NCBI GenBank assembly: GCA_003152105.1
Contig: PLZJ01000002.1
Span: 108,257-172,256 of the forward strand
From: Candidatus Levyibacteriota bacterium
GTDB lineage: Bacteria; Patescibacteriota; Microgenomatia; Levybacterales; UBA12049
Length of the DNA: 64,000 bases
Direction: 5' to 3'
Shown: piece after piece, positions 1,264-43,802 of the stretch
Layout: each line of letters starts with the position of its first letter
Position numbering within the stretch: the first letter of the stretch is position 1
Translations under genes and position numbers: made by a program
The notes under the pieces: model-generated
Told to the model about the DNA's origin: nothing
The model's database searches: none
Seen by the model: the letters and a program-made list of their open reading frames with translations, nothing else

Positions 1264-3654
1264 TCAAAGCCTTGCTCTTTGAGAAATCTCTGCTTCAACT
1301 AGCTGTACGTCTTTTGCGTACTTTAGAGAAGATAATTCCTTGACCAGCTCTGCTACACGAGGATTCTTCGCAGCATTTTCTACTGTCATATCTTTTCTAA
1401 GATCTAGAGAGAAAGGACTAACAGGTTCGCCATCGACAATTGTTTTAATATATGCGTTATATTTATCTACATTAATTAAATCAACCTCATTAAAAATAGG
1501 TTGAAATTCATGCTGCAAATAATTCGCGTCAGTTACTCCAACTCGAAACGAAACAAGAGAACCTACATTACCAAAAATTGCATTCTTTACCTCTTCTTCC
1601 ATTTGGCCAATAAATTGATTTGCCACTATTAAATTTAAACGATATTTACGAGCTTCAGATAAAATTGCTGCAAAGTCGGGAGTTGCAAAGTTTTGAAATT
1701 CATCTACATACAGAAAAAAATCTTTACGTTGATCCATTGGAATATTTTGCCTAGACATTGCAGCGATTAAAATTTTTGGTACTAATATCAAGCCTAAAAA
1801 ACTTGAGTTTTCTTCACCAATAATACCTTTTGATAACGATATTAACATTATTTTCCCTTCGTCCATTATTTTTCTGAAATCAAAGGATGATTGCGATTGC
1901 CCAATAATATTTCTCATAAGCTTATTAGTTGTAAATCTTGAAAATTTAGAAACAATATAATCGAGTACTTCTGATTTATGGAAATCTGAAGTTTGTGCTA
2001 TTTGATCAGTCCAATATCGTCGTATTATAGGGTCAGTAACTTTTGGTAATAATTCTTGCACAAAGCTCATATCGGTTAATGCACGTTGCACCTCAATGAA
2101 TGTAGAGCCAGGTTCTGCCATAACCGTTAACATTGCATTACGTATTGAATGTTCTAATCGAGGTCCCACAATACCAGTCTTATGTGGATCATAGAGTTTA
2201 TAAAATAAACCTATAATTGACGATACTACGTAATGCTTCTGCTCTTCAGAATAGGCTTCCATAATATTTAAGCCCATTGGTCTTGAAGTATTTGCAGGAT
2301 CAAATAAGATAACATCTTCTGCTCGCTCAGGAGGCATCATTGATAATATATCTTCGATTAAATCTCCGTGAGGATCAATAACAGCCATGCCTTCGCCATT
2401 CTTAACATCCTGCATTATCATATCTTTCAAAAATTCTGTTTTACCCGTACCTGTTTTACCAATAATATACATATGCCTTCTTCTATCGTCTTCGCTTATA
2501 AATACTTTCTTCTCTAATCCTCTGTACGTACTCTTTCCAAGAAATAACCCTGAATCTGGAATTTTTGCTGGTGCAGGAGCTCGCTTTGACGTAACCCAAA
2601 AAATATTTGGCGTAGTTACTGATTTGTTTGGAAGATGAAATATGGTTGCTAATTCTTCACTAGAAAGTATTGGTATTCTCCCACGAAGAGGTAAATATCT
2701 ATAAATAAAATCAGTTAAAAATGGCTTTTTGAAAATCAGTCTTTCTTTCGTAAATGAATTTACGCTATCAAACTGAGAAAAAGCACTTCGCATGTTGCTC
2801 AGATGAGATTCAGCCATTTCCTGAGATGTTGATGATACAACCATACGTATAGTTGTGTGAAATCCTGATTTACTTATTTTATTTTCTACTGCCTCGAGTT
2901 CTTTAGCATCTGAGGAGTATTTCGCAGTGTCGGGATTGGATTCATTCTTCTTTGTTTTAGCAATATATGATCTCCCATGTTTTTTCCAAGAAGTAGATGC
3001 AGGAGAAATTATTATTTGTATAGCCGCACCTTCCCCTTCTGTCATTTTGGCCAGAACTGAAGTTATTGATGATAATGGATCTACAGCAAGATCCTTATAC
3101 GCTTTAATTGGCATATAATCAGTACTTGTGAGTTTTAAAGAACAGAAAGCTACCTTTCCTTTATCAGAAAATATATTGTATTCACCTCCAATGAATTTTT
3201 GCGTTTGTGGATCATCTCCTACTGGGGTAATTTCAGCATCAGGATAAGCACCGTTAATTTGCTTTTCAACTAAGTCACGGAGGTTATTTGGAGTATATAC
3301 ATAAAACCTAATATCTCCAGGGAATCCGACAATTTCAAATGAAATATGAGGCTGATTTACCAAAAAAGATAGTTTTAAAAATCTTTTTAAAGAATATCTC
3401 TTTAAGCGTTTAATGGCAGCAAGAGACGCAAACAGTTGCTCTGCGGCGTCTATTTTTATTTCGTTTTCTCGAGGTAAGGCTATTTGTAAAAGCGTTGAAT
3501 TTAACGCATCTTGCTCTCTACCTCTATTTTTTCTCCAGATATAAAAGACGTAACCACCCAAATATAAAATCCCACAAAGTACTACTACAGCCAATAATTC
3601 GACCAAAATAATATTTAGTGAACCCAACGAAAATCCCGAAGTTATGTCAATCAT
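1264..3654 (-). CDS. type IV secretion coupling-protein-like ATPase (VirD4/TraG/TraD family), N-terminal TM anchor
   Basis: N-terminal TM helix. Walker A IIGKTGTGKT; Walker B LYVDEFQNF followed by a TraG/TraD C-terminal-like region. Confidence 0.6.
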   Translation of the reverse strand: MIDITSGFSLGSLNIILVELLAVVVLCGILYLGGYVFYIWRKNRGREQDALNSTLLQIALPRENEIKIDAAEQLFASLAAIKRLKRYSLKRFLKLSFLVNQPHISFEIVGFPGDIRFYVYTPNNLRDLVEKQINGAYPDAEITPVGDDPQTQKFIGGEYNIFSDKGKVAFCSLKLTSTDYMPIKAYKDLAVDPLSSITSVLAKMTEGEGAAIQIIISPASTSWKKHGRSYIAKTKKNESNPDTAKYSSDAKELEAVENKISKSGFHTTIRMVVSSTSQEMAESHLSNMRSAFSQFDSVNSFTKERLIFKKPFLTDFIYRYLPLRGRIPILSSEELATIFHLPNKSVTTPNIFWVTSKRAPAPAKIPDSGLFLGKSTYRGLEKKVFISEDDRRRHMYIIGKTGTGKTEFLKDMIMQDVKNGEGMAVIDPHGDLIEDILSMMPPERAEDVILFDPANTSRPMGLNIMEAYSEEQKHYVVSSIIGLFYKLYDPHKTGIVGPRLEHSIRNAMLTVMAEPGSTFIEVQRALTDMSFVQELLPKVTDPIIRRYWTDQIAQTSDFHKSEVLDYIVSKFSRFTTNKLMRNIIGQSQSSFDFRKIMDEGKIMLISLSKGIIGEENSSFLGLILVPKILIAAMSRQNIPMDQRKDFFLYVDEFQNFATPDFAAILSEARKYRLNLIVANQFIGQMEEEVKNAIFGNVGSLVSFRVGVTDANYLQHEFQPIFNEVDLINVDKYNAYIKTIVDGEPVSPFSLDLRKDMTVENAAKNPRVAELVKELSSLKYAKDVQLVEAEISQRARL

Positions 3655-4078
3655 AATTAGTTAGCTCCTTTCTATTTCTTTTTTTAATTAATTTTATGAG
3701 TATTGAAGCAATCCAAAATATTGAATCAGATGTATTATTGTCGTGTATAGCTTGAGTTGCCTGTGCTGATGTTAAGGGAAGTGTAATTTCTTGGGCAGGT
3801 TCTTGTCCAGCTGGAATTGCCTCACCCTGCAATGCAACGCCGCTATGTCGTACCACTTGAGGAAGAGTTGGAGGCTTATTTACTTCAACGCCTGCCTCTT
3901 TTACTTCTTGAGGCAACCGAGGCTCAACTTCGCTTGGATGCACATACTCTACTTTTGTTTCCTCAGTTCGAATAGGAGCATGCTCCTTATGTCCTCCACT
4001 TATTGGCTGTTGAGGGATTTGTGGCTGTATAGTTTGAGCATTTTGATCATTTATAGGTTTTTTATTCTGATCGTCCAT
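3647..4078 (-). CDS. Pro/Gln-rich small protein with C-terminal hydrophobic anchor, hypothetical
   Basis: ORF of 143 aa whose stop overlaps the start of the coupling-ATPase gene by 8 nt (operonic). C-terminus IFWIASILIKLIKKRNRK. Confidence 0.4.
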   Translation of the reverse strand: MDDQNKKPINDQNAQTIQPQIPQQPISGGHKEHAPIRTEETKVEYVHPSEVEPRLPQEVKEAGVEVNKPPTLPQVVRHSGVALQGEAIPAGQEPAQEITLPLTSAQATQAIHDNNTSDSIFWIASILIKLIKKRNRKELTNYD

Positions 4079-4156
4079 AGTGTAATCATACCAAATACAC
4101 CTGCCTCACACAATGAAAATTAGCTTACATAAACCTAACAAAATAAGTTTTGTGTT

Positions 4157-4330
4157 TCACAAAGCATCTTGTATATTAGAACTTTTGTTTGGTATCCAAC
4201 CACATATCGGACAACTCGAAAGTAATCCTTTTTGTATTTTATTTACATCTTCTTGATTAGCAATCCAATTACAACGAGCACATTTAATTTCGTAACATAT
4301 GTCACATTTTTTTTGAGTTATTTGATTCAT
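4157..4330 (-). CDS. small zinc-ribbon protein (57 aa, two CxxC pairs)
   Basis: ATG at 4328-4330 overlaps the upstream gene's TAA stop (TAATG). Translation MNQITQKKCDICYEIKCARCNWIANQEDVNKIQKGLLSSCPICGWIPNKSSNIQDAL; below the ORF-track size cutoff. Confidence 0.45.
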   Translation of the reverse strand: MNQITQKKCDICYEIKCARCNWIANQEDVNKIQKGLLSSCPICGWIPNKSSNIQDAL

Positions 4331-5571
4331 TATGTTTTACCGCAAGCAATATTTGTTTTACCGCAATGCTGACATTCCTTAACATAACCTCCAAGTGGTC
4401 GCTCATTTTCCTTATTGCAATCGGGGCATTTTGGATACAACGTTCCTTTACCATCTGGGCCTTCTTCGGTTAACAATGAGAATGATGCACTAAGCATAGT
4501 AATTCTTTGTTGTAGTGATCCAGGATTTGCAAGCATAGTTCGAACTGCAATAGAAAACATAGCAATAGGATTATTTGCTACATCTTCACCTGATAATCCA
4601 CAGGTCGTAGCAACATTTTTTATTTCATGATCATAACTACTATATCTTGCAAAAACCGATTTATCTTTATCTGCTTTTTCCGAAGTTGAATATCTCCATT
4701 CATCCTTTGTGTTGAAATCTGCACCACTGGATAAATCATATAAACTTCTTTGTGCAAAATTATATAATATCCTCAGTTCTGATTTAAAATCTTCCTCATT
4801 TTCCCCTTGCATAATTCTAGTACTTATTGTGTCTATCATTTCTGTTAGATCTTTATGTGCACTATGCCAGATCGTTTCTCCGTGCAGCATAAAATCCTGC
4901 ATCACCATGGGTGCATAGAGAGGAAAGTTTCTTAATCTTTTTTGATAAACTCTTTCAAGTTGTTTATATATGTGCTCAAAACTATTAGCATCAGAACTAC
5001 CATTTGGATTAAGTAATATTGATTCTTCAGTTGCATCAACTACATTGCTTCCTGAAATACCATTTAAAAAGTCAGCTTGCTCTTCCTTGCTAAACTCATT
5101 TATGTACGACAACGCTTTTATTGTTCGTTCTCCAGGCCTCTCAGATGGCGTAATATGATAAAAGTACATTAGGTTATATCCTGGATATCCAGGGATTTCT
5201 TTATCTGGAGCAGGTGAACAAAGCACTACCGTTGAGTACAAAGGCAAGCTTTTCAATTGCTCTTTAACTAAAGAGTATCCTCTATTTTCAAGCGTATAAC
5301 GCTGTGCTATCGTATCACCATATTGTTCTTTTGCTTTTCCCACAGAAAGTGCATATGAGTTATCAAGATCACCACGATGCTCAAATCCATTTGCAGTTAC
5401 TGAGCCATTTGCTAAATGGTGTAATTCAAATGAATTCCATGATCTTTCTCGTTCAGTAAGAGCAGCTCGTAGTTGAGCACGAAGTGAAGGCAATACATTT
5501 TCCGCATTTTTTATACGTTCTTGCTCATCGTTAAAATTAAATGCGCTCCTTGTTTCTAATGTATTATTCAT
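4330..5571 (-). CDS. hypothetical soluble protein (413 aa) with C-terminal zinc ribbon (CPDC...CQHC)
   Basis: Long ORF with no family recognised by eye. Last gene of the nrdR-nrdJ-pduO minus-strand run; SD sequestered in an upstream hairpin. Confidence 0.6.
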   Translation of the reverse strand: MNNTLETRSAFNFNDEQERIKNAENVLPSLRAQLRAALTERERSWNSFELHHLANGSVTANGFEHRGDLDNSYALSVGKAKEQYGDTIAQRYTLENRGYSLVKEQLKSLPLYSTVVLCSPAPDKEIPGYPGYNLMYFYHITPSERPGERTIKALSYINEFSKEEQADFLNGISGSNVVDATEESILLNPNGSSDANSFEHIYKQLERVYQKRLRNFPLYAPMVMQDFMLHGETIWHSAHKDLTEMIDTISTRIMQGENEEDFKSELRILYNFAQRSLYDLSSGADFNTKDEWRYSTSEKADKDKSVFARYSSYDHEIKNVATTCGLSGEDVANNPIAMFSIAVRTMLANPGSLQQRITMLSASFSLLTEEGPDGKGTLYPKCPDCNKENERPLGGYVKECQHCGKTNIACGKT

Positions 5572-5697
5572 AAAAAAAGCTCCTTTTCCGAGGAGCTATT
5601 ATGCATCTGCTCGGATGTCCGTAAATACGGACCTCGGGGATCGGACTGTAACCGTTACGGCATAGTTGCGAAATCTCATCGCATTCACCCGCGAAAT
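5572..5697 (-). promoter_or_regulatory. structured 5' leader with SD-sequestering hairpin (candidate riboswitch / cis-regulatory RNA)
   Basis: On the minus strand the RNA ends ...AGCUCCUCGGAAAAGGAGCU-UUUUUUU-AUG. The AAGGAG Shine-Dalgarno lies in the 3' half of a 7-bp hairpin (plus-strand coordinates 5578-5597). Upstream CCCCGAGG (plus-strand 5632-5639) can pair with the hairpin's 5' half as an alternative structure. Shares the motif gttacggcatag...attcac with the leader at 6250-6473. Confidence 0.35.
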
Positions 5698-6249
5698 TTA
5701 CTTTACTAATTCTGATTTACTTTGAATCCAATTTGTTTCTTTTTTATTGTTTAGCATATTTGCATATCTTGCCATTGTAAAAAAAACGTCTGAAAGCCTG
5801 TTAAAATACATTAAGAGATTCTCGTCAATCCTATCTGCTTCATATAATGCAACTACTAAGCGCTCTACGCGCCTACAAACTGTACGAATATAATGTAGAT
5901 TAGCCCCACTTCTTCCACCTCCAGGTAATATAAAATTTTGTAAGAGAGGTAGCTTCTTTGTAAGCCTATCTATGTATTGTTCTAAAAATAATAAACGATT
6001 ATCAATTCCCTTTAACGGTTCTGCATTAGGATTTGCAAGTTGAGCGCCTATTGCAAGTAAATCATATTGTATTTTTAGTAATTCCTTTTTCAAAAGACTA
6101 TCTTTAATATCAACTAAAGCAACACCTAAAAGACTATTCAATTCATCAACGCTCCCATACGCATCTACTCGCTTATTTGATTTTGACACTCTCTTTCCAC
6201 CAAATAATGATGTTTTACCCTTATCGCCAGTTTTTGTATATATTTTCAT
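5698..6249 (-). CDS. pduO: PduO-type ATP:cob(I)alamin adenosyltransferase
   Basis: N-terminal TKTGDKGKTSL motif and overall PduO-type architecture (183 aa). Confidence 0.8.
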   Translation of the reverse strand: MKIYTKTGDKGKTSLFGGKRVSKSNKRVDAYGSVDELNSLLGVALVDIKDSLLKKELLKIQYDLLAIGAQLANPNAEPLKGIDNRLLFLEQYIDRLTKKLPLLQNFILPGGGRSGANLHYIRTVCRRVERLVVALYEADRIDENLLMYFNRLSDVFFTMARYANMLNNKKETNWIQSKSELVK

Positions 6250-6473
6250 AGTAATGTTAAAGCGGACTTTTTAAGTTGTTTTTTTCATAAAAAAATCCCT
6301 CTTTGCCCAAGAAGGATTCATTAACAATATCACAATTCCTGCTCGGGAAACGTAAAGGAAGTTTTCTGGCTGTACAGTTACGGCATAGCCACGGAATTGT
6401 GATAATTACATTCACTTCACCGTGATTTCCTTACCCTTTACGACAAATTCAATATAACTTTAGTGTAACTTAG
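6250..6473 (-). promoter_or_regulatory. structured intergenic leader upstream of pduO-type gene containing shared motif and a 5-codon mini-ORF
   Basis: Inverted repeat atcacaattcc / ggaattgtgat encloses tggctgtacagttacggcatagcca. On the minus strand AAGAGGGAUUUUUUU-AUG AAA AAA ACA ACU UAA (MKKTT) precedes the pduO ATG by 24 nt. Confidence 0.3.
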
Positions 6474-8939
6474 CTAGCACTCTGAGTATCCACACCCATA
6501 GCACTTTTTACACCCCTCTTCATACGCTAACGTAGACGATCCGCAATCAGGACAAATATCAAATAATCCCGTTGATGATGCAGCATATAATTCTTCGGTT
6601 TGAGGAAGCATTGCAAGTTGTCCTTTGACTACAACCTCTGTGTTTACAGGTAAAGCATGCCCATTTGCTATTTCTGAACTTACCCCGTTACTTTGAGAAC
6701 TTATAGTTGATTCAGTAACTGTACCAAGGGGTGCTGACATAACTTCTGAAATTATTTCTTTATCTTCAACTTTTCCATTTACCCTAAACTCCATGTGTTT
6801 CGCAAGCACTTTCGCAATCGCATCAGGCAATGAACGCACTCTGTTTTCTCCAAATCCGACACTTCTTGCGCCCCCTATTCCAGATAGCTCTGATACAATC
6901 TCTCTGATACGTTCTCTTTGTGGCACTGGTGAGTGTATTCGAAGAACAAATGATATCATTCTTCCTAATGCATCTGACATTGCCATCAAATCTGAACCTG
7001 ATTTTCCATTATTAATAAACACTTCAAATGGCTGCCCTTTTTCATCATTATTAATATTTACATATGCTTTTCCAGTTGGACTTTCTGTTTTATACGTAGT
7101 TCCATGTAAAACAAGTGGTCGAGAAACACGAGCTGTTGCAGGGATAATAGGCGCAACTACTTCTTCTTTCTTCTCTTCAACTCGTTGCAAAACCCCAAGT
7201 CGTGAACCGTCACGCATATAGGTAATCCCTTTGCATCCCGTATCGTACGCTAACATGTATAATCTTTTTACATCTTCAACTGTATGAGCGTTAGGAGCAT
7301 TTACTGTTTTAGAGATTGAAGCATCAACATATTTTTGTACCGTAGCTTGCATTTTTACATGATCTTCGGGAGTTAAATCATTTGCGGATACAAAATAATC
7401 TGGCCTCTTTTCGGTCGGATGTTTTTCTTTCCATTCACCAAAAAGCTTATGGAATACAACTTGTTTTCCGAGTCTACCATTATGGGTATATTCGAATTCA
7501 TAAACTGGTTCTACTCCTGAAGAGGCTCCTGAAAGCAAACTAGTTGTTCCAGTAGGTGCTGCTTGTAGAATCATGGAATTTCTAATTCCGTTATCTTTAA
7601 TCTTTTCTTTAATTTCTTTTGGAAGTTGCTTTACAAAATATGCTTTCAAATGCTTATCTGGTTCACATTTTGGAAACATCCCCTTTTCTTTGGCAATGTC
7701 AGCTGATGCTTCATAAGCAGCATCTCTTATTGTCTTATATATCCTGTCTACTACTTTTTGAGATTCATCACTGCCATATCTTAGATGCAATTTAATTAAT
7801 GCATCAGCTAAGCCTAATGTTCCAAGTCCTATTCTTCTTTCTCCTTGATGCTGCATTTGTTCTATTTCTTCATAAATATACTGATCCGCATCAACTACAT
7901 TATCTTGAAATCGAACTGCGATTTTTGCATGATCTGCTAATGATTCGAAGTCAAACCATCCTGCCTTATCAGTTTCCGCATCTTTTACAAATGCTGATAA
8001 ATTTAAGGAAGCCAAATTACATACTCCCCAAGCAGGTAATCCCTCTTCTCCACAAGGATTTACACAATTAATCGTATTCCAATACCAATTGTTATACCAT
8101 TTATTGTATCTTTCCATAAATACTAAGCCAGGCTCAGCACTTTTCCATGCAGCTTCACAAATTTTTTGCCAAATATCTCGAGCCTTTACCGTTTTATAAA
8201 CTTTTACTTTTTTACCTAGTTTTTTCCAGTGATCCATGATGCCGTCCCATTTTTCATCATATTCTGGGTCGTCGAGATCAGGAAATACCAAATCCCAATC
8301 AGCATCCATTTTTACTGCTTCCATAAATGTATCTGAAACACAAACAGATAAATTAGCACCATTTATTCTTGATAAATCTTCTTTAACAGTAATAAATTCC
8401 TCTATATCTGGGTGCCAATCCCAAAGCATTAACATCAGCGCACCTCTTCTTGAACCTCCTTGTTGGATAATGTCATGCGTTGCGAGTGAGTACATTTCTG
8501 CCCAATTAATAGGTCCCGAAGAAAATCCATTTACTTTTTTTACTCTAGCTCCCCTTGGTCTTAGTGAAGAAATATTAATTCCTACACCTCCGCCTCTTGC
8601 CATAATTTCAATCATATTAGTGAGATTTGTCATAATCCCATCTCGTGAATCTTTTGGAGAAGGCAACACAAAGCAATTATAGAAAGTAACAGCATATCCA
8701 GTTCCTGCCCCAGCCAATACTCTTCCTCCTGGTACAAACTTGAAATCTTCCATTGCTTTATAAAATTTATCAGCCCATTCTTTTTGTTTTTTTGGGGTTT
8801 TTTCAACACTTGCAATAGCGTCTCCGACGCGTTTCCACATTTCTTCCGGGGTTTTTTCAACAGGATCACCGTTTTTATCTTTTACAGAATATCTATCTAA
8901 AAATACTTTTTCTCTTACACCATCAAGTTTCATAGGCAA
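6474..8939 (-). CDS. nrdJ: adenosylcobalamin-dependent ribonucleotide reductase, class II
   Basis: 821-aa RNR-like ten-stranded barrel protein with C-terminal Cys cluster (CPDCGSS...CKKCYGCGYSEC). Immediately downstream of nrdR and upstream of a cobalamin adenosyltransferase gene. Confidence 0.85.
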   Translation of the reverse strand: MPMKLDGVREKVFLDRYSVKDKNGDPVEKTPEEMWKRVGDAIASVEKTPKKQKEWADKFYKAMEDFKFVPGGRVLAGAGTGYAVTFYNCFVLPSPKDSRDGIMTNLTNMIEIMARGGGVGINISSLRPRGARVKKVNGFSSGPINWAEMYSLATHDIIQQGGSRRGALMLMLWDWHPDIEEFITVKEDLSRINGANLSVCVSDTFMEAVKMDADWDLVFPDLDDPEYDEKWDGIMDHWKKLGKKVKVYKTVKARDIWQKICEAAWKSAEPGLVFMERYNKWYNNWYWNTINCVNPCGEEGLPAWGVCNLASLNLSAFVKDAETDKAGWFDFESLADHAKIAVRFQDNVVDADQYIYEEIEQMQHQGERRIGLGTLGLADALIKLHLRYGSDESQKVVDRIYKTIRDAAYEASADIAKEKGMFPKCEPDKHLKAYFVKQLPKEIKEKIKDNGIRNSMILQAAPTGTTSLLSGASSGVEPVYEFEYTHNGRLGKQVVFHKLFGEWKEKHPTEKRPDYFVSANDLTPEDHVKMQATVQKYVDASISKTVNAPNAHTVEDVKRLYMLAYDTGCKGITYMRDGSRLGVLQRVEEKKEEVVAPIIPATARVSRPLVLHGTTYKTESPTGKAYVNINNDEKGQPFEVFINNGKSGSDLMAMSDALGRMISFVLRIHSPVPQRERIREIVSELSGIGGARSVGFGENRVRSLPDAIAKVLAKHMEFRVNGKVEDKEIISEVMSAPLGTVTESTISSQSNGVSSEIANGHALPVNTEVVVKGQLAMLPQTEELYAASSTGLFDICPDCGSSTLAYEEGCKKCYGCGYSEC

Positions 8940-8952
8940 TTATTATTTATTA

Positions 8953-9402
8953 TTAACCAATTAAGCGTTTTACTTCTTTTTCGAAATCTTCAACATCTAC
9001 AAAGCGTTTAAATACACTTGAGAACCGAATATATGCCACTTTATCTATTGTTTTTAAATTTGCTGCTATCATGCTTCCTATCTTACTGCTTTCAATTTCA
9101 CTTGCTTCTGTGGTCCTTAGTTCTCGTTCTATATCATGCACAATCTTATCTATTGCTTCTAAGCTTACTGTTGTTTTTTCGCATGCGCGAAGAATTCCGT
9201 TTTTTAATTTATCTCTACTAAACTGTTCCCGAGTCTTATCTTTTTTTATTACATACAAGTTGATATTTTCAACTCTTTCGTATGTAGTAAATCGTTTTGA
9301 GCAAGTAACACAGGCTCGTCTTCTACGAATCGTTCCTAGGTCATCACTGTCTCTTGTCTCTACAACTTCTGTTTGTCTACCTCCGCAATATGGACATCTC
9401 AT
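8953..9402 (-). CDS. nrdR: transcriptional repressor NrdR (zinc ribbon + ATP-cone)
   Basis: MRCPYCGG...CVTCSKRFTTYERVE N-terminal zinc ribbon; 149 aa, typical NrdR length. Confidence 0.9.
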   Translation of the reverse strand: MRCPYCGGRQTEVVETRDSDDLGTIRRRRACVTCSKRFTTYERVENINLYVIKKDKTREQFSRDKLKNGILRACEKTTVSLEAIDKIVHDIERELRTTEASEIESSKIGSMIAANLKTIDKVAYIRFSSVFKRFVDVEDFEKEVKRLIG

Positions 9403-9405
9403 ACC

Positions 9406-9453
9406 TGCTATATATAGTGCTCTCTATCATAATATTGCACTACATATAAGGTG
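9406..9453 (-). promoter_or_regulatory. two NrdR-box-like palindromes spaced ~32 bp centre to centre upstream of nrdR-nrdJ
   Basis: Box 1 gcactatatatagc at 9406-9421 (reverse strand); box 2 cactacatataaggtg at 9438-9453. Both resemble the 16-bp NrdR consensus acaCwAtATaTwGtgt, and tandem boxes three helical turns apart are typical. Confidence 0.35.
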
Positions 9454-9547
9454 TCAACTAGAAATATCTATATCATATATAGTCACTAGCTTTGGGGCAT
9501 TATTTTTTCGCTAGCTTACTCACTTAATGGAAACAAAAACTGAACAA

Positions 9548-24486: not shown

Positions 24487-24849
24487 GGGGATGAATCGAT
24501 TCGACGAGAATAGTACTTTGAAAAACAGCAAGCCGACTTTGATATATAGTCGTTAAACAGGATCAAAACATAAATGCTGAAGGATTATCCTTTAGTCGTT
24601 ATAATGCTCAGCCAGCAATGGCCTTTGCATAAAGCGTATCTATAACTCCCTTTCTTTGCGGGACATATAGATATTTACAAAGCTAAGATATAGTAAAAAA
24701 TCTGGTTTCGTTTTTTACCGAATTTTGAAACCTTACTATTATTTTTCCTGTCAATTGGATCAAGATATTAGGAAGTTTAATAATTGACTACGCTTGTAGA
24801 CGTTTTTAACTGACTTTTTCGGACTCCGGTTCACTGCCGGACATCTCCA
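24487..24849 (+). ncRNA. ssrA: tmRNA (ssrA), tag reading frame ending ...NAQPAMAFA-UAA
   Basis: 5' GGGGAUGAAUCGAUUCGACG resembles the E. coli tmRNA 5' end. 3' T-arm CCGGUUCACUGCCGG followed by CAUCUCC-A pairs with the 5' GGGGAUG to form a 7-bp acceptor stem. Sits immediately downstream of smpB; ~363 nt. Confidence 0.75.
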
Positions 24850-24930
24850 CAAACAACGTTTAGATTGCTAAATCAATCTAAACTAATACATTATCAGATA
24901 ATTAATACCTTCATATTTAATCCTGTAGTA

Positions 24931-26321: not shown

Positions 26322-26409
26322 GGAGGAGTCGCATAGCCTGGTCCATTGCGAGGGTTTGCTAAACCCTTGAGCCGTAAGGCTCGCGCAGGTTCAAATCCTG
26401 TCTCCTCCG
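26322..26409 (+). tRNA. tRNA-Ser (anticodon GCU), class II with long variable arm
   Basis: Acceptor GGAGGAG/CTCCTCC; anticodon stem-loop AGGGT TTGCTAA ACCCT; variable arm TGAGCCGTAAGGCTCGC; T-arm GCAGG TTCAAAT CCTGT. Confidence 0.8.
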
Positions 26410-26424
26410 CAATAAAGTTCTATT

Positions 26425-26511
26425 GGAGAGGTCGCATAGTGGCCTAGTGCGGCGGTCTTGAAAACCGCTGTGGGTGCAAGCTCACCGTGGGTTCGAATCC
26501 CACCCTCTCCG
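26425..26511 (+). tRNA. tRNA-Ser (anticodon UGA)
   Basis: Acceptor GGAGAGG/CCTCTCC; anticodon stem-loop GCGGT CTTGAAA ACCGC; long variable arm; T-arm GTGGG TTCGAAT CCCAC. Confidence 0.8.
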
Positions 26512-27189: not shown

Positions 27190-27262
27190 GTGCCCGTAGT
27201 TCAATGGATAGAACACCTGGTTGCGGTCCAGGCGGTTGGAGGTTCGATTCCTCTCGGGCACG
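27190..27262 (+). tRNA. tRNA-Arg (anticodon GCG)
   Basis: GTGCCCG-TA-GTTC AATGGATA GAAC-A-CCTGG TTGCGGT CCAGG-CGGTT-GGAGG TTCGATT CCTCT-CGGGCAC-G. Confidence 0.65.
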
Positions 27263-29373: not shown

Positions 29374-29460
29374 GGAGGGGTCGCATAGTGGACTAGTGCA
29401 GCGGTTTCGAAAACCGCCATAAGGGAAACCTTATCGTGGGTTCAAATCCCACCCCCTCCG
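29374..29460 (+). tRNA. tRNA-Ser (anticodon CGA)
   Basis: Acceptor GGAGGGG/CCCCTCC; anticodon stem-loop GCGGT TTCGAAA ACCGC; long variable arm; T-arm GTGGG TTCAAAT CCCAC. Confidence 0.8.
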
Positions 29461-43715: not shown

Positions 43716-43802
43716 CGGAGAGGGCGGGATTTGAACCCGCGATACCTTTACAGGTATACAGCTTTTCCAAAGCTGCGCACTAGGCCACTATGCGACCCCT
43801 CC
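43716..43802 (-). tRNA. tRNA-Ser (anticodon GGA)
   Basis: Reverse complement: acceptor GGAGGGG/CCCTCTCC region; anticodon stem-loop CAGCT TTGGAAA AGCTG; long variable arm; T-arm GCGGG TTCAAAT CCCGC. Confidence 0.8.

Follow-up and report, generated by a model that had tools for sequence, protein, structure and literature searches.

A protein family behind predicted cobalamin riboswitches as a candidate B12-handling factor of ultra-small bacteria

What does a protein without a recognisable family contribute when its gene lies beside an ATP:cob(I)alamin adenosyltransferase (ATR), in minimal-genome bacteria that are obliged to scavenge B12 for their DNA precursors? The question is posed by a 64,000-nt stretch of contig PLZJ01000002.1 from Candidatus Levyibacteriota bacterium (positions 108,257 to 172,256; G+C ~35%), which we call the window, and within it by a gene on the minus strand at 4330-5571 that encodes a soluble protein of 413 amino acids (aa), hereafter X. 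Directly upstream lies the gene of a PduO-type ATR (5698-6249, minus strand; PF01923, E 1e-55), and X is followed by a 57-aa cysteine-rich open reading frame (ORF; 4157-4330, minus strand). An earlier note on this DNA had described X and the 57-aa ORF as two overlapping TAATG genes with CxxC ribbons; the ORF list and the homologues confirm both ORFs, their coordinates and the overlap, a single base in which the A of the second ATG is the A of X's TAA stop codon. Our analysis makes X a strong candidate for a factor, so far undescribed, that handles B12 in ultra-small bacteria of the candidate phyla radiation (CPR). That X is regulated by a corrinoid-sensing RNA, being transcribed and translated behind its own predicted cobalamin riboswitch, is well supported by the comparative analysis of its leader.

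The leader of X lies in the 126-nt gap between pduO and X. A class-II-like cobalamin riboswitch aptamer without a P6 extension (5627-5703, minus strand) starts at the pduO stop codon and matches RF01689, the adenosylcobalamin (AdoCbl)-II model of clan CL00101, with 32.5 bits (E 1e-4 in 7 kb, 1e-3 in 64 kb). The Rfam scan of the window returned only two riboswitch-like matches, this leader and that of pduO. Among orthologous X leaders, taken from loci that we number L001 to L029, the scores against RF01689 (gathering score 36.5) are 47.2 bits in L001, 44 in L003, 46.4 in L022, 48.4 in both L023 and L024, 41.5 in L028 and 36.9 in L016, and those against RF00174 (gathering score 31.5) are 35.3 in L013, 35.1 in L014, 36.9 in L026 and 32.5 in L020. 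The aptamer core is kept across the leaders as GGGTGAA..CTGTGCCGCAACTG..AGTCAGA.CCCC, and in an alignment of 12 leaders ten core columns are invariant and six of the eight RNAalifold pairs carry double compensatory changes.

Downstream of the aptamer, every leader contains a P13-like hairpin (5604-5617, minus strand; CATC-CGAGCA-GATG, consensus CTTC-CGAGCA-GAAG), whose stem change is compensatory (CTTC/GAAG versus CATC/GATG). It is followed by a hairpin that, from a terminator scan and from its sequence, is both a terminator and a Shine-Dalgarno sequestrator (5572-5597, minus strand; stem 5578-5597, T-run 5572-5577). The hairpin reads AGCTCCT-CGGAAA-AGGAGCT, its 3' arm holds the AGGAG Shine-Dalgarno sequence (5580-5584), and the ATG of X comes one base after the T-run. 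Nearly all orthologous leaders share this design; the L028 leader has no terminator, and its P13-like hairpin itself contains the Shine-Dalgarno sequence. The earlier note had correctly seen a structured leader sequestering X's Shine-Dalgarno sequence, but it missed the leader's identity as a cobalamin riboswitch and the second copy before pduO.

The 5' half of P13 (UCCGAG; consensus UUCCGAG) complements the 5' arm and loop of the terminator (CUCGGA; CUCGGAA), and it is therefore a candidate antiterminator. The complementarity co-varies between lineages: TTCCGAG faces CTCGGAA, TCCCGAG faces CTCGGGA (L013, L026), and CTCTCGAG faces CTCGAGAG; in L012 and L014 the pair, written as RNA, is CUCUCGAG/CUCGAGAG. 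In this way the P13/L13 hairpin of the X leader is coupled to the expression platform; no kissing-loop partner (L5) of P13/L13 was identified in the leader. In repressing corrinoid riboswitches, a ligand-dependent kissing loop stabilises P13 so that the terminator forms; the terminator and an intact P13 can coexist, and P13 bases go into the antiterminator (PMC10327014). Because the layout of the X leader matches this experimentally defined rule, we infer an OFF switch of the repressing type. With a corrinoid bound, the P13-like hairpin would be stabilised, the terminator would form, the Shine-Dalgarno sequence would be buried and X would be off. When corrinoid is scarce, the P13 5' half would instead pair with the terminator 5' arm, and X would be made.

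The association between riboswitch and X holds across the family. An alignment-based locus search yielded 2 loci in GTDB species representatives and 11 in JGI metagenomes, and the survey of X comprised 23 distinct loci having sequence upstream of the gene; a cobalamin-clan riboswitch precedes X in 23 of 23. It lies above the Rfam gathering score in 11 loci (L001, L003, L013, L014, L016, L020, L022, L023, L024, L026 and L028) and below it, with E <= 0.05, in 7 (the window, L005, L009, L011, L012, L019 and L029). L007, L010 and L021 gave no Rfam match at X and L018 one with E 0.39; all four have the same core, hairpin and terminator. At L017 a single riboswitch stands ahead of pduO, and the start codon of X overlaps the pduO stop codon (ATGA), an arrangement through which X is predicted to be translationally coupled to pduO.

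The leaders also differ by an insertion, which sets L007, L009, L010, L011, L018, L019 and L021 apart from the window, L001, L005, L016, L020 and L022-L024. It measures ~20-110 nt and falls where the P6 extension would be, between GCCGCAACTGT and AGTCAGA. Because lineages have gained or lost it, RF01689 is the matching model for some leaders, and RF00174 or RF01482 for others. The series of leaders with and without this insertion may bear on corrinoid selectivity.

X is almost always found within an nrdR-nrdJ-ATR cluster, and L014, L028 and L029 are the most informative loci because the usual neighbourhood is broken there. At L014, two glycosyltransferase genes stand between pduO and X, and X retains a predicted promoter and a 35.1-bit riboswitch. 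At L028, X lies among unrelated neighbours with a predicted promoter and a 41.5-bit riboswitch directly upstream, and at L029 it remains with nrdR-nrdJ-pduO while the usual downstream genes are replaced. The linkage to nrdJ and pduO that the earlier note proposed to check in related genomes is near-constant, but L028 breaks it and L014 splits pduO from X. Upstream of the riboswitch, L012, L014 and L028 have promoter-like elements, a TTGAC-type -35 with a matching -10, which would agree with a separate promoter for X.

The same kind of switch recurs at neighbouring genes. In the window, a second aptamer lies between nrdJ and pduO, in the pduO leader (6351-6442, minus strand; RF01689, 29.1 bits, E 1e-3), also below the gathering score of 36.5, and both window aptamers are followed by a short hairpin and then by a G+C-rich hairpin with a T-run. 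The hairpin that is both terminator and sequestrator of the pduO riboswitch occupies 6293-6319 (minus strand), ahead of its T-run, a mini-ORF and the pduO ATG. Equivalent riboswitches upstream of pduO or of DUF4430-DUF6580-pduO occur in L007, L010, L011, L013 and L017. In L007 and L011 the riboswitch is ahead of the DUF4430 gene in the order DUF4430, DUF6580 (CbrT-like), pduO; in L013 it is ahead of DUF4430-DUF6580, and a CobA-type ATR gene lies just upstream in place of the PduO-type. DUF4430 is related to the transcobalamin beta-domain (best PDB match transcobalamin-1, E 0.43), and the sole PDB match of the DUF6580 protein is the B12 transporter ECF-CbrT (6FNP, E 0.22). The 64-kb window contains no DUF4430 or DUF6580 uptake genes and no further B12 genes besides this cluster. 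Since riboswitches head these DUF4430, DUF6580 and ATR genes, the regulon around X concerns B12 acquisition and adenosylation, and in silico X is predicted to be co-regulated with the ATR. With one riboswitch-terminator ahead of pduO and another ahead of X, the cluster is a chain of separately attenuated units, and the simple nrdR-nrdJ-pduO-X operon that had been proposed is not supported.

The pduO leader of the window has a peculiarity of its own. In all orthologous pduO leaders the ATG abutting the T-run is the gene start, whereas in the window it opens a mini-ORF of 5 codons (ATG AAA AAA ACA ACT TAA). The pduO ATG (6249) is ~27 nt further on and has no visible Shine-Dalgarno sequence. The arrangement may reflect re-initiation or coupling, or a recent insertion.

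We now turn to the protein itself. A search of 5.8 billion proteins gave 24 full-length homologues of X (31-42% identity), none with a Pfam domain, and an exhaustive HMMER search of 1.84 billion representatives with the X profile gave 23 strong matches (E <= 1e-30) and ~120 weaker ones, many of them 370-470 aa long. Fifteen distant sequences align over their full length with the core family (hhalign probability 99.9, E 6e-35). The 24 full-length homologues and this wider superfamily establish X as a genuine gene rather than a chance ORF. The superfamily is small, and its members occur only on metagenomic, CPR-like contigs; exact copies of X, the 57-aa ORF and several neighbours are present on a 1.15-Mb contig in NCBI without product names, and the nearest named homologue comes from a Candidatus Levybacteria genome.

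X has no match above cut-off in Pfam or NCBIfam and none in PHROG or PADLOC; in the latter two libraries (phage and anti-phage defence) the 57-aa ORF and a 143-aa neighbour have no match either. Among 50 members of the family there is no Pfam or NCBIfam match other than zinc ribbons, the longer homologues show no domain fusions, and the X profile retrieved from the PDB sequences only eL43/L37ae-type ribbons and a sub-threshold SBDS match. A literature search on CPR/Patescibacteria cobalamin riboswitches and novel B12-regulon genes found no description of the X family. The claim that X has no recognisable family and is not yet described has thus stood up to family libraries, PDB sequences and folds, and the literature. 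What is new is the protein family; its riboswitch adds a member to an established class, and the genes are arranged as in familiar B12 regulons.

An AlphaFold model of X, built on a 50-sequence alignment, has a predicted local distance difference test score (pLDDT) of 83.3 and a predicted template modelling score of 0.77. It consists of an N-terminal alpha/beta and helical domain (residues 10-281, pLDDT >90), a beta-hairpin with C324 at its tip, a disordered tether (347-377) and a C-terminal ribbon. Across the 50 sequences, E40, R91, S119, P189, C324 and C403 are invariant, and E95, G98, P120, Y129, L186, C382, P383, C385 and C400 nearly so. We defined a zinc ribbon as two CxxC knuckles, 10-18 residues apart, on a beta-ribbon; the C-terminus of X shows this C4 pattern (C382, C385, C400 and C403; CPDC-x14-CQHC), all four cysteines being invariant or nearly invariant, and its recurrent weak matches are zinc-ribbon families and eL43. 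The candidate metals of this site are Zn and Fe. Almost every member has a fifth or sixth cysteine beyond the ribbon, which in at least 28 of 39 parsed members lies at the extreme C-terminus (C410 in the window) and otherwise forms a CC doublet before the first knuckle. In Foldseek searches of the PDB with two models of X (pLDDT 75 and 83) and of BFVD, nothing fell below E 0.01; the best PDB match has E 0.5, and the weak PAS- or Cache-like matches have a probability <= 0.21. The AlphaFold and Foldseek check that had been suggested gave a confident model (pLDDT 83) that matches no fold in the PDB.

No other gene in this otherwise well-conserved syntenic block evolves nearly as fast as X (L001-L029 against the window, tblastn). 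Its identity to the window copy is 31-42%, and 17-20% in deeper clades, against 62-77% for nrdR, 50-72% for nrdJ, 64-71% for the downstream DUF8128 ATPase gene and 42-57% for pduO. Possible causes of this divergence are a relaxation of constraint, a role in binding or as a scaffold, and the adaptation of X to differing corrinoids or partners.

These observations lead us to the reading we favour, and which we consider on balance probable: X acts as a B12-regulated accessory, with the 57-aa protein as an optional partner, in converting scavenged cobalamin into AdoCbl for NrdJ, the class II B12-dependent ribonucleotide reductase (RNR) of the cluster. Under B12 scarcity, PduO would be made alongside X through the same kind of switch, and X would act in the cytoplasm beside the ATR. 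As for its chemistry, we infer that X would take incoming cob(III)alamin, strip off or replace its upper ligand and/or act as a source of reducing equivalents, and hand the corrinoid on to PduO; Cys324 and the extra cysteine on the tethered metal-binding ribbon could serve as a thiol ligand or a thiol-disulfide relay. The earlier note had guessed at a role in deoxynucleotide or cobalamin metabolism. The cobalamin branch of that guess is favoured by the riboswitch in 23 of 23 loci and by the L017 coupling, whereas the deoxynucleotide branch, with X as an RNR reductant, is disfavoured by the repressing platform.

Several points weigh against the accessory role. The window copy of the X riboswitch is 4 bits short of the RF01689 gathering score of 36.5, and both the ligand and the sign of regulation are deduced from the leader's architecture. 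Most loci come from related CPR genomes, so that adjacency alone is weak evidence; much of the synteny around X reflects their common ancestry. What carries our argument is therefore the link to the riboswitch, together with the three loci L014, L028 and L029 and the pduO-X overlap of L017. X has no sequence or fold similarity to known cobalamin-binding or -processing proteins, among them CblC, CblD, BtuM, PduS and the B12-binding Rossmann domain, and neither a His-on or DxHxxG motif nor a motif for flavin or nucleotide binding occurs in it. Core enzymes do not usually diverge so fast, and such a pace would equally suit a scaffold or a binding protein.

The proposed partner, the 57-aa ORF, has the cysteine pattern CxxC-x4-CxxC-x19-CPxC. 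A homologue search with the protein returned only itself, and a local tblastn search found orthologues directly after X in five other loci, all six cysteines being kept; this recurrence identifies it as a genuine gene. The orthologues share C-x2-C-Y-x-I-x-C-x2-C-x-W...CP-x-CG; those of L011/L015 have the same one-base overlap, that of L016 is adjacent to X, and those of L022, L023 and L024 lie 58 nt downstream. The ORF is not present in L001, L003, L005, L007, L009 or L010. The suggestion that it is a coupled partner of X is therefore borne out as far as a genuine gene in six loci goes, but, being found in only about a quarter of lineages, the partner is an optional accessory. Through the TAATG overlap it is predicted to be translationally coupled to X in the window. 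Its scores against YnfU (PF23499, 15.2 bits, cut-off 27; NF038384, 13 bits, cut-off 36) and against FmdB (TIGR02605, 14 bits, cut-off 31.3) do not place it in the YnfU family.

Could X be aimed at NrdJ rather than at its cofactor supply, as a reductant of the enzyme's cysteine-rich C-terminal domain or as a cofactor loading or repair factor? The nrdJ gene (6474-8939, minus strand) encodes a PF02867 barrel, a TSCPD domain and a C-terminal six-cysteine array (6474-6560; CPDC-x10-CKKCYGC-x4-C, or CX2CX10CX2CX2CX4C). This is the zinc/redox pattern of NrdJd enzymes, CX2C-X9-10-CX2CX2C-X4-5-C at the extreme C-terminus (PMC5704485), whose native reductant was reported as unknown, thioredoxins and glutaredoxins having failed (PMC5704485). 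The near-constant position of X inside the nrdR-nrdJ-ATR cluster speaks for such a role, as does its tethered ribbon with one or two extra cysteines, which in some members reaches a comparable arrangement of six (C-x-CPxC-x14-CPxC-x7-C); X may, in a related reading, be the physiological electron donor of NrdJ enzymes with a cysteine-rich domain. However, a reductant is most needed at high B12 and NrdJ activity, yet a repressing platform would turn X off when corrinoid is plentiful, and this sign of regulation disfavours X as an RNR reductant. X is also regulated with the ATR and uptake genes and not by the NrdR boxes ahead of nrdR-nrdJ, it overlaps pduO rather than nrdJ in L017, it is not near nrdJ in L028, and Pfam and the fold search revealed no thioredoxin-like fold and no redox CxxC outside the ribbon. 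We consider a role directed at NrdJ unlikely.

The NrdR boxes themselves are two palindromes upstream of nrdR (9406-9457, minus strand), CACCTTATATGTAGTG at 9438-9453 and AGCACTATATATAGCA at 9406-9421. They are 32 bp apart and overlap the nrdR promoter (TTGACA-17-TATTAT). On account of these NrdR-box-like sites, nrdR (8953-9402, minus strand; PF22811 and PF03477, zinc ribbon and ATP-cone) and nrdJ appear to be auto-regulated by NrdR, apart from the B12-controlled units. In L011 (2500-6039) and L015 (1497-5036) nrdJ carries a LAGLIDADG intein (1179 aa), and L012 and L014 have two tandem genes for RNR catalytic subunits (736 and 622 aa). L016 contains a group I intron match (8748-8938, 70 bits).

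A second alternative assigns X to the genes downstream, or to a function unrelated to B12, with the riboswitch-terminator serving mainly to end pduO transcription. Downstream of X lie genes for a 143-aa protein with a C-terminal hydrophobic segment (3647-4078, minus strand) and for a 796-aa DUF8128 or TrwB/VirD4-like ATPase (1264-3654, minus strand), and this module follows X in most loci with no convincing terminator between X, or the 57-aa ORF, and the next gene. Nevertheless, the module has a promoter of its own (TTGTGT-17-TGgTATGAT, 4085-4113, minus strand), which ends 6 nt before the ATG at 4078, and in 10 of 10 orthologous loci the extended -10 (TGnTAnnAT) is placed 6-8 nt ahead of the start codon of the small membrane-anchored protein. 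So close a conserved -10 implies that the 143-aa protein and the ATPase, a widely conserved CPR gene pair, are probably expressed from a leaderless mRNA, and that X is not simply the first gene of the next operon. The module is not after X in L029; at L028 the contig ends ~200 nt past X with only an opposite-strand 62-aa ORF, where the module cannot be assessed. The hairpin buries the Shine-Dalgarno sequence of X and abuts its ATG in nearly all lineages, the promoter-like elements of L012, L014 and L028 stand upstream of the riboswitch, and, with identities of 31-42% and 64-71%, X and the ATPase do not co-evolve. We regard membership in the downstream module as quite unlikely. In view of the downstream promoter and the conservation gap to the ATPase, we take X, alone or together with the 57-aa ORF, to be a separate unit under riboswitch control.

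Two narrower candidates were rejected: X as the first gene of the ATPase operon, by L029 and the leaderless promoter, and the hairpin as a mere pduO terminator, since the Shine-Dalgarno sequence of X lies within it and it is retained at loci where pduO is not the neighbour. The 143-aa gene overlaps that of the ATPase by 8 nt; its product is only ~28-35% identical across loci, against 64-71% for the ATPase, which has weak similarity to TrwB/TraD/VirD4 and to Ced DNA-import ATPases. Elsewhere the window carries a tmRNA gene (24487-24852, plus strand, 113 bits) and tRNA genes at 1111-1182, 26322-26511, 27190-27262, 29374-29460 and 43716-43802.

The B12 riboswitches of other bacteria also control metE and nrdEF/nrdDG, and repressing logic fits such genes as well as it fits B12 supply. 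X might then be a B12-independent back-up or sparing function that is switched on when NrdJ is idle, such as an alternative deoxyribonucleotide route, and the apparent standing of NrdJ as the sole B12 enzyme in the neighbourhood, the invariant cysteine at a beta-hairpin tip and the cysteine-rich tail would suit it. We hold this to be very unlikely, given that X is predicted to be coupled to the ATR in L017, shares its regulon with B12 uptake and adenosylation genes, resembles no RNR, no pyruvate formate-lyase-like barrel, no kinase and no deoxyribosyltransferase, and diverges at a pace unlike that of a central metabolic enzyme. Its boldest form, a riboswitch-induced supply of deoxyribonucleotides by X and its small partner, through chemistry of a new type, while NrdJ is starved of cofactor, in which Cys324 and a redox-active ribbon-tail cysteine would act like the finger-loop cysteine and C-terminal shuttle of an RNR, we consider highly improbable.

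If X is a B12-regulated accessory of cofactor supply, why would it matter? New B12 biology has come repeatedly from genes of no known function behind B12 riboswitches, among them those for transporters, surface binders and decyanases. Here, in every lineage that we examined, a family without an assignment or a PDB fold goes with a cobalamin riboswitch. The riboswitches of the X loci form a natural series that gains and loses the P6-extension region, which is useful for studies of corrinoid selectivity.

How do the leader and the protein compare with known systems? In its aptamer core and covarying helices, the X leader resembles RF01689, the env8 hydroxocobalamin type and the Priestia megaterium metE switch. 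With the repressing metE switch it further shares the P13/L13 hairpin, the P13-compatible terminator and an antiterminator drawn from P13 bases (PMC10327014), and the L028 leader resembles translational class-II switches in having the Shine-Dalgarno sequence within P13. Unlike known class-II switches, the X leader places the Shine-Dalgarno sequence in the 3' arm of a terminator that adjoins the start codon, and it departs from RF01689 in that the window copy is under the cut-off and the orthologues vary at the P6-extension position.

The tail of X is like the cysteine-rich domain of NrdJd (PMC5704485) in being a terminal CxxC...CxxC zinc module with an extra cysteine near the C-terminus on a flexible tether. 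It differs in spacing (NrdJ, CX2CX9-10CX2CX2CX4-5C) and in the unrelated domain to which it is attached, and the two have no significant sequence similarity. The 57-aa ORF shares small size and CxxC pairs with zinc-ribbon proteins of the YnfU/FmdB type, but it scores far under their cut-offs, and its six-cysteine pattern and position after X are particular to its own small family. BtuM carries out a cysteine-mediated decyanation of B12 (PMC6072759). X resembles it in having a conserved cysteine as a possible axial ligand or nucleophile in a context of B12 uptake and processing; BtuM, however, is a small membrane protein of the energy-coupling factor S-component type, whereas X is soluble, 400 aa long and without similarity to it.

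PduS, a cobalamin reductase and flavoprotein with two 4Fe-4S clusters, is a partner of the PduO-type ATR. Like PduS, X is encoded beside a PduO-type ATR, has cysteine-rich metal sites and could supply electrons for cob(I)alamin; unlike PduS, it lacks flavin, NAD and ferredoxin motifs, and Pfam offers no match. In its proposed role, X is closest to human CblC (MMACHC) and CblD (MMADHC), which are likewise cytoplasmic and concerned with thiol-based processing of the upper ligand and hand-off towards an ATR, and CblD uses a cysteine as cobalt ligand. X has no sequence or fold similarity to CblC or CblD, possesses a zinc-ribbon module and matches no PDB fold. If X does process, reduce or chaperone cobalamin, it would explain how these symbionts keep their sole RNR supplied, and the step performed elsewhere by CblC and CblD, or by PduS, would here have a new solution that is homologous to none of them.

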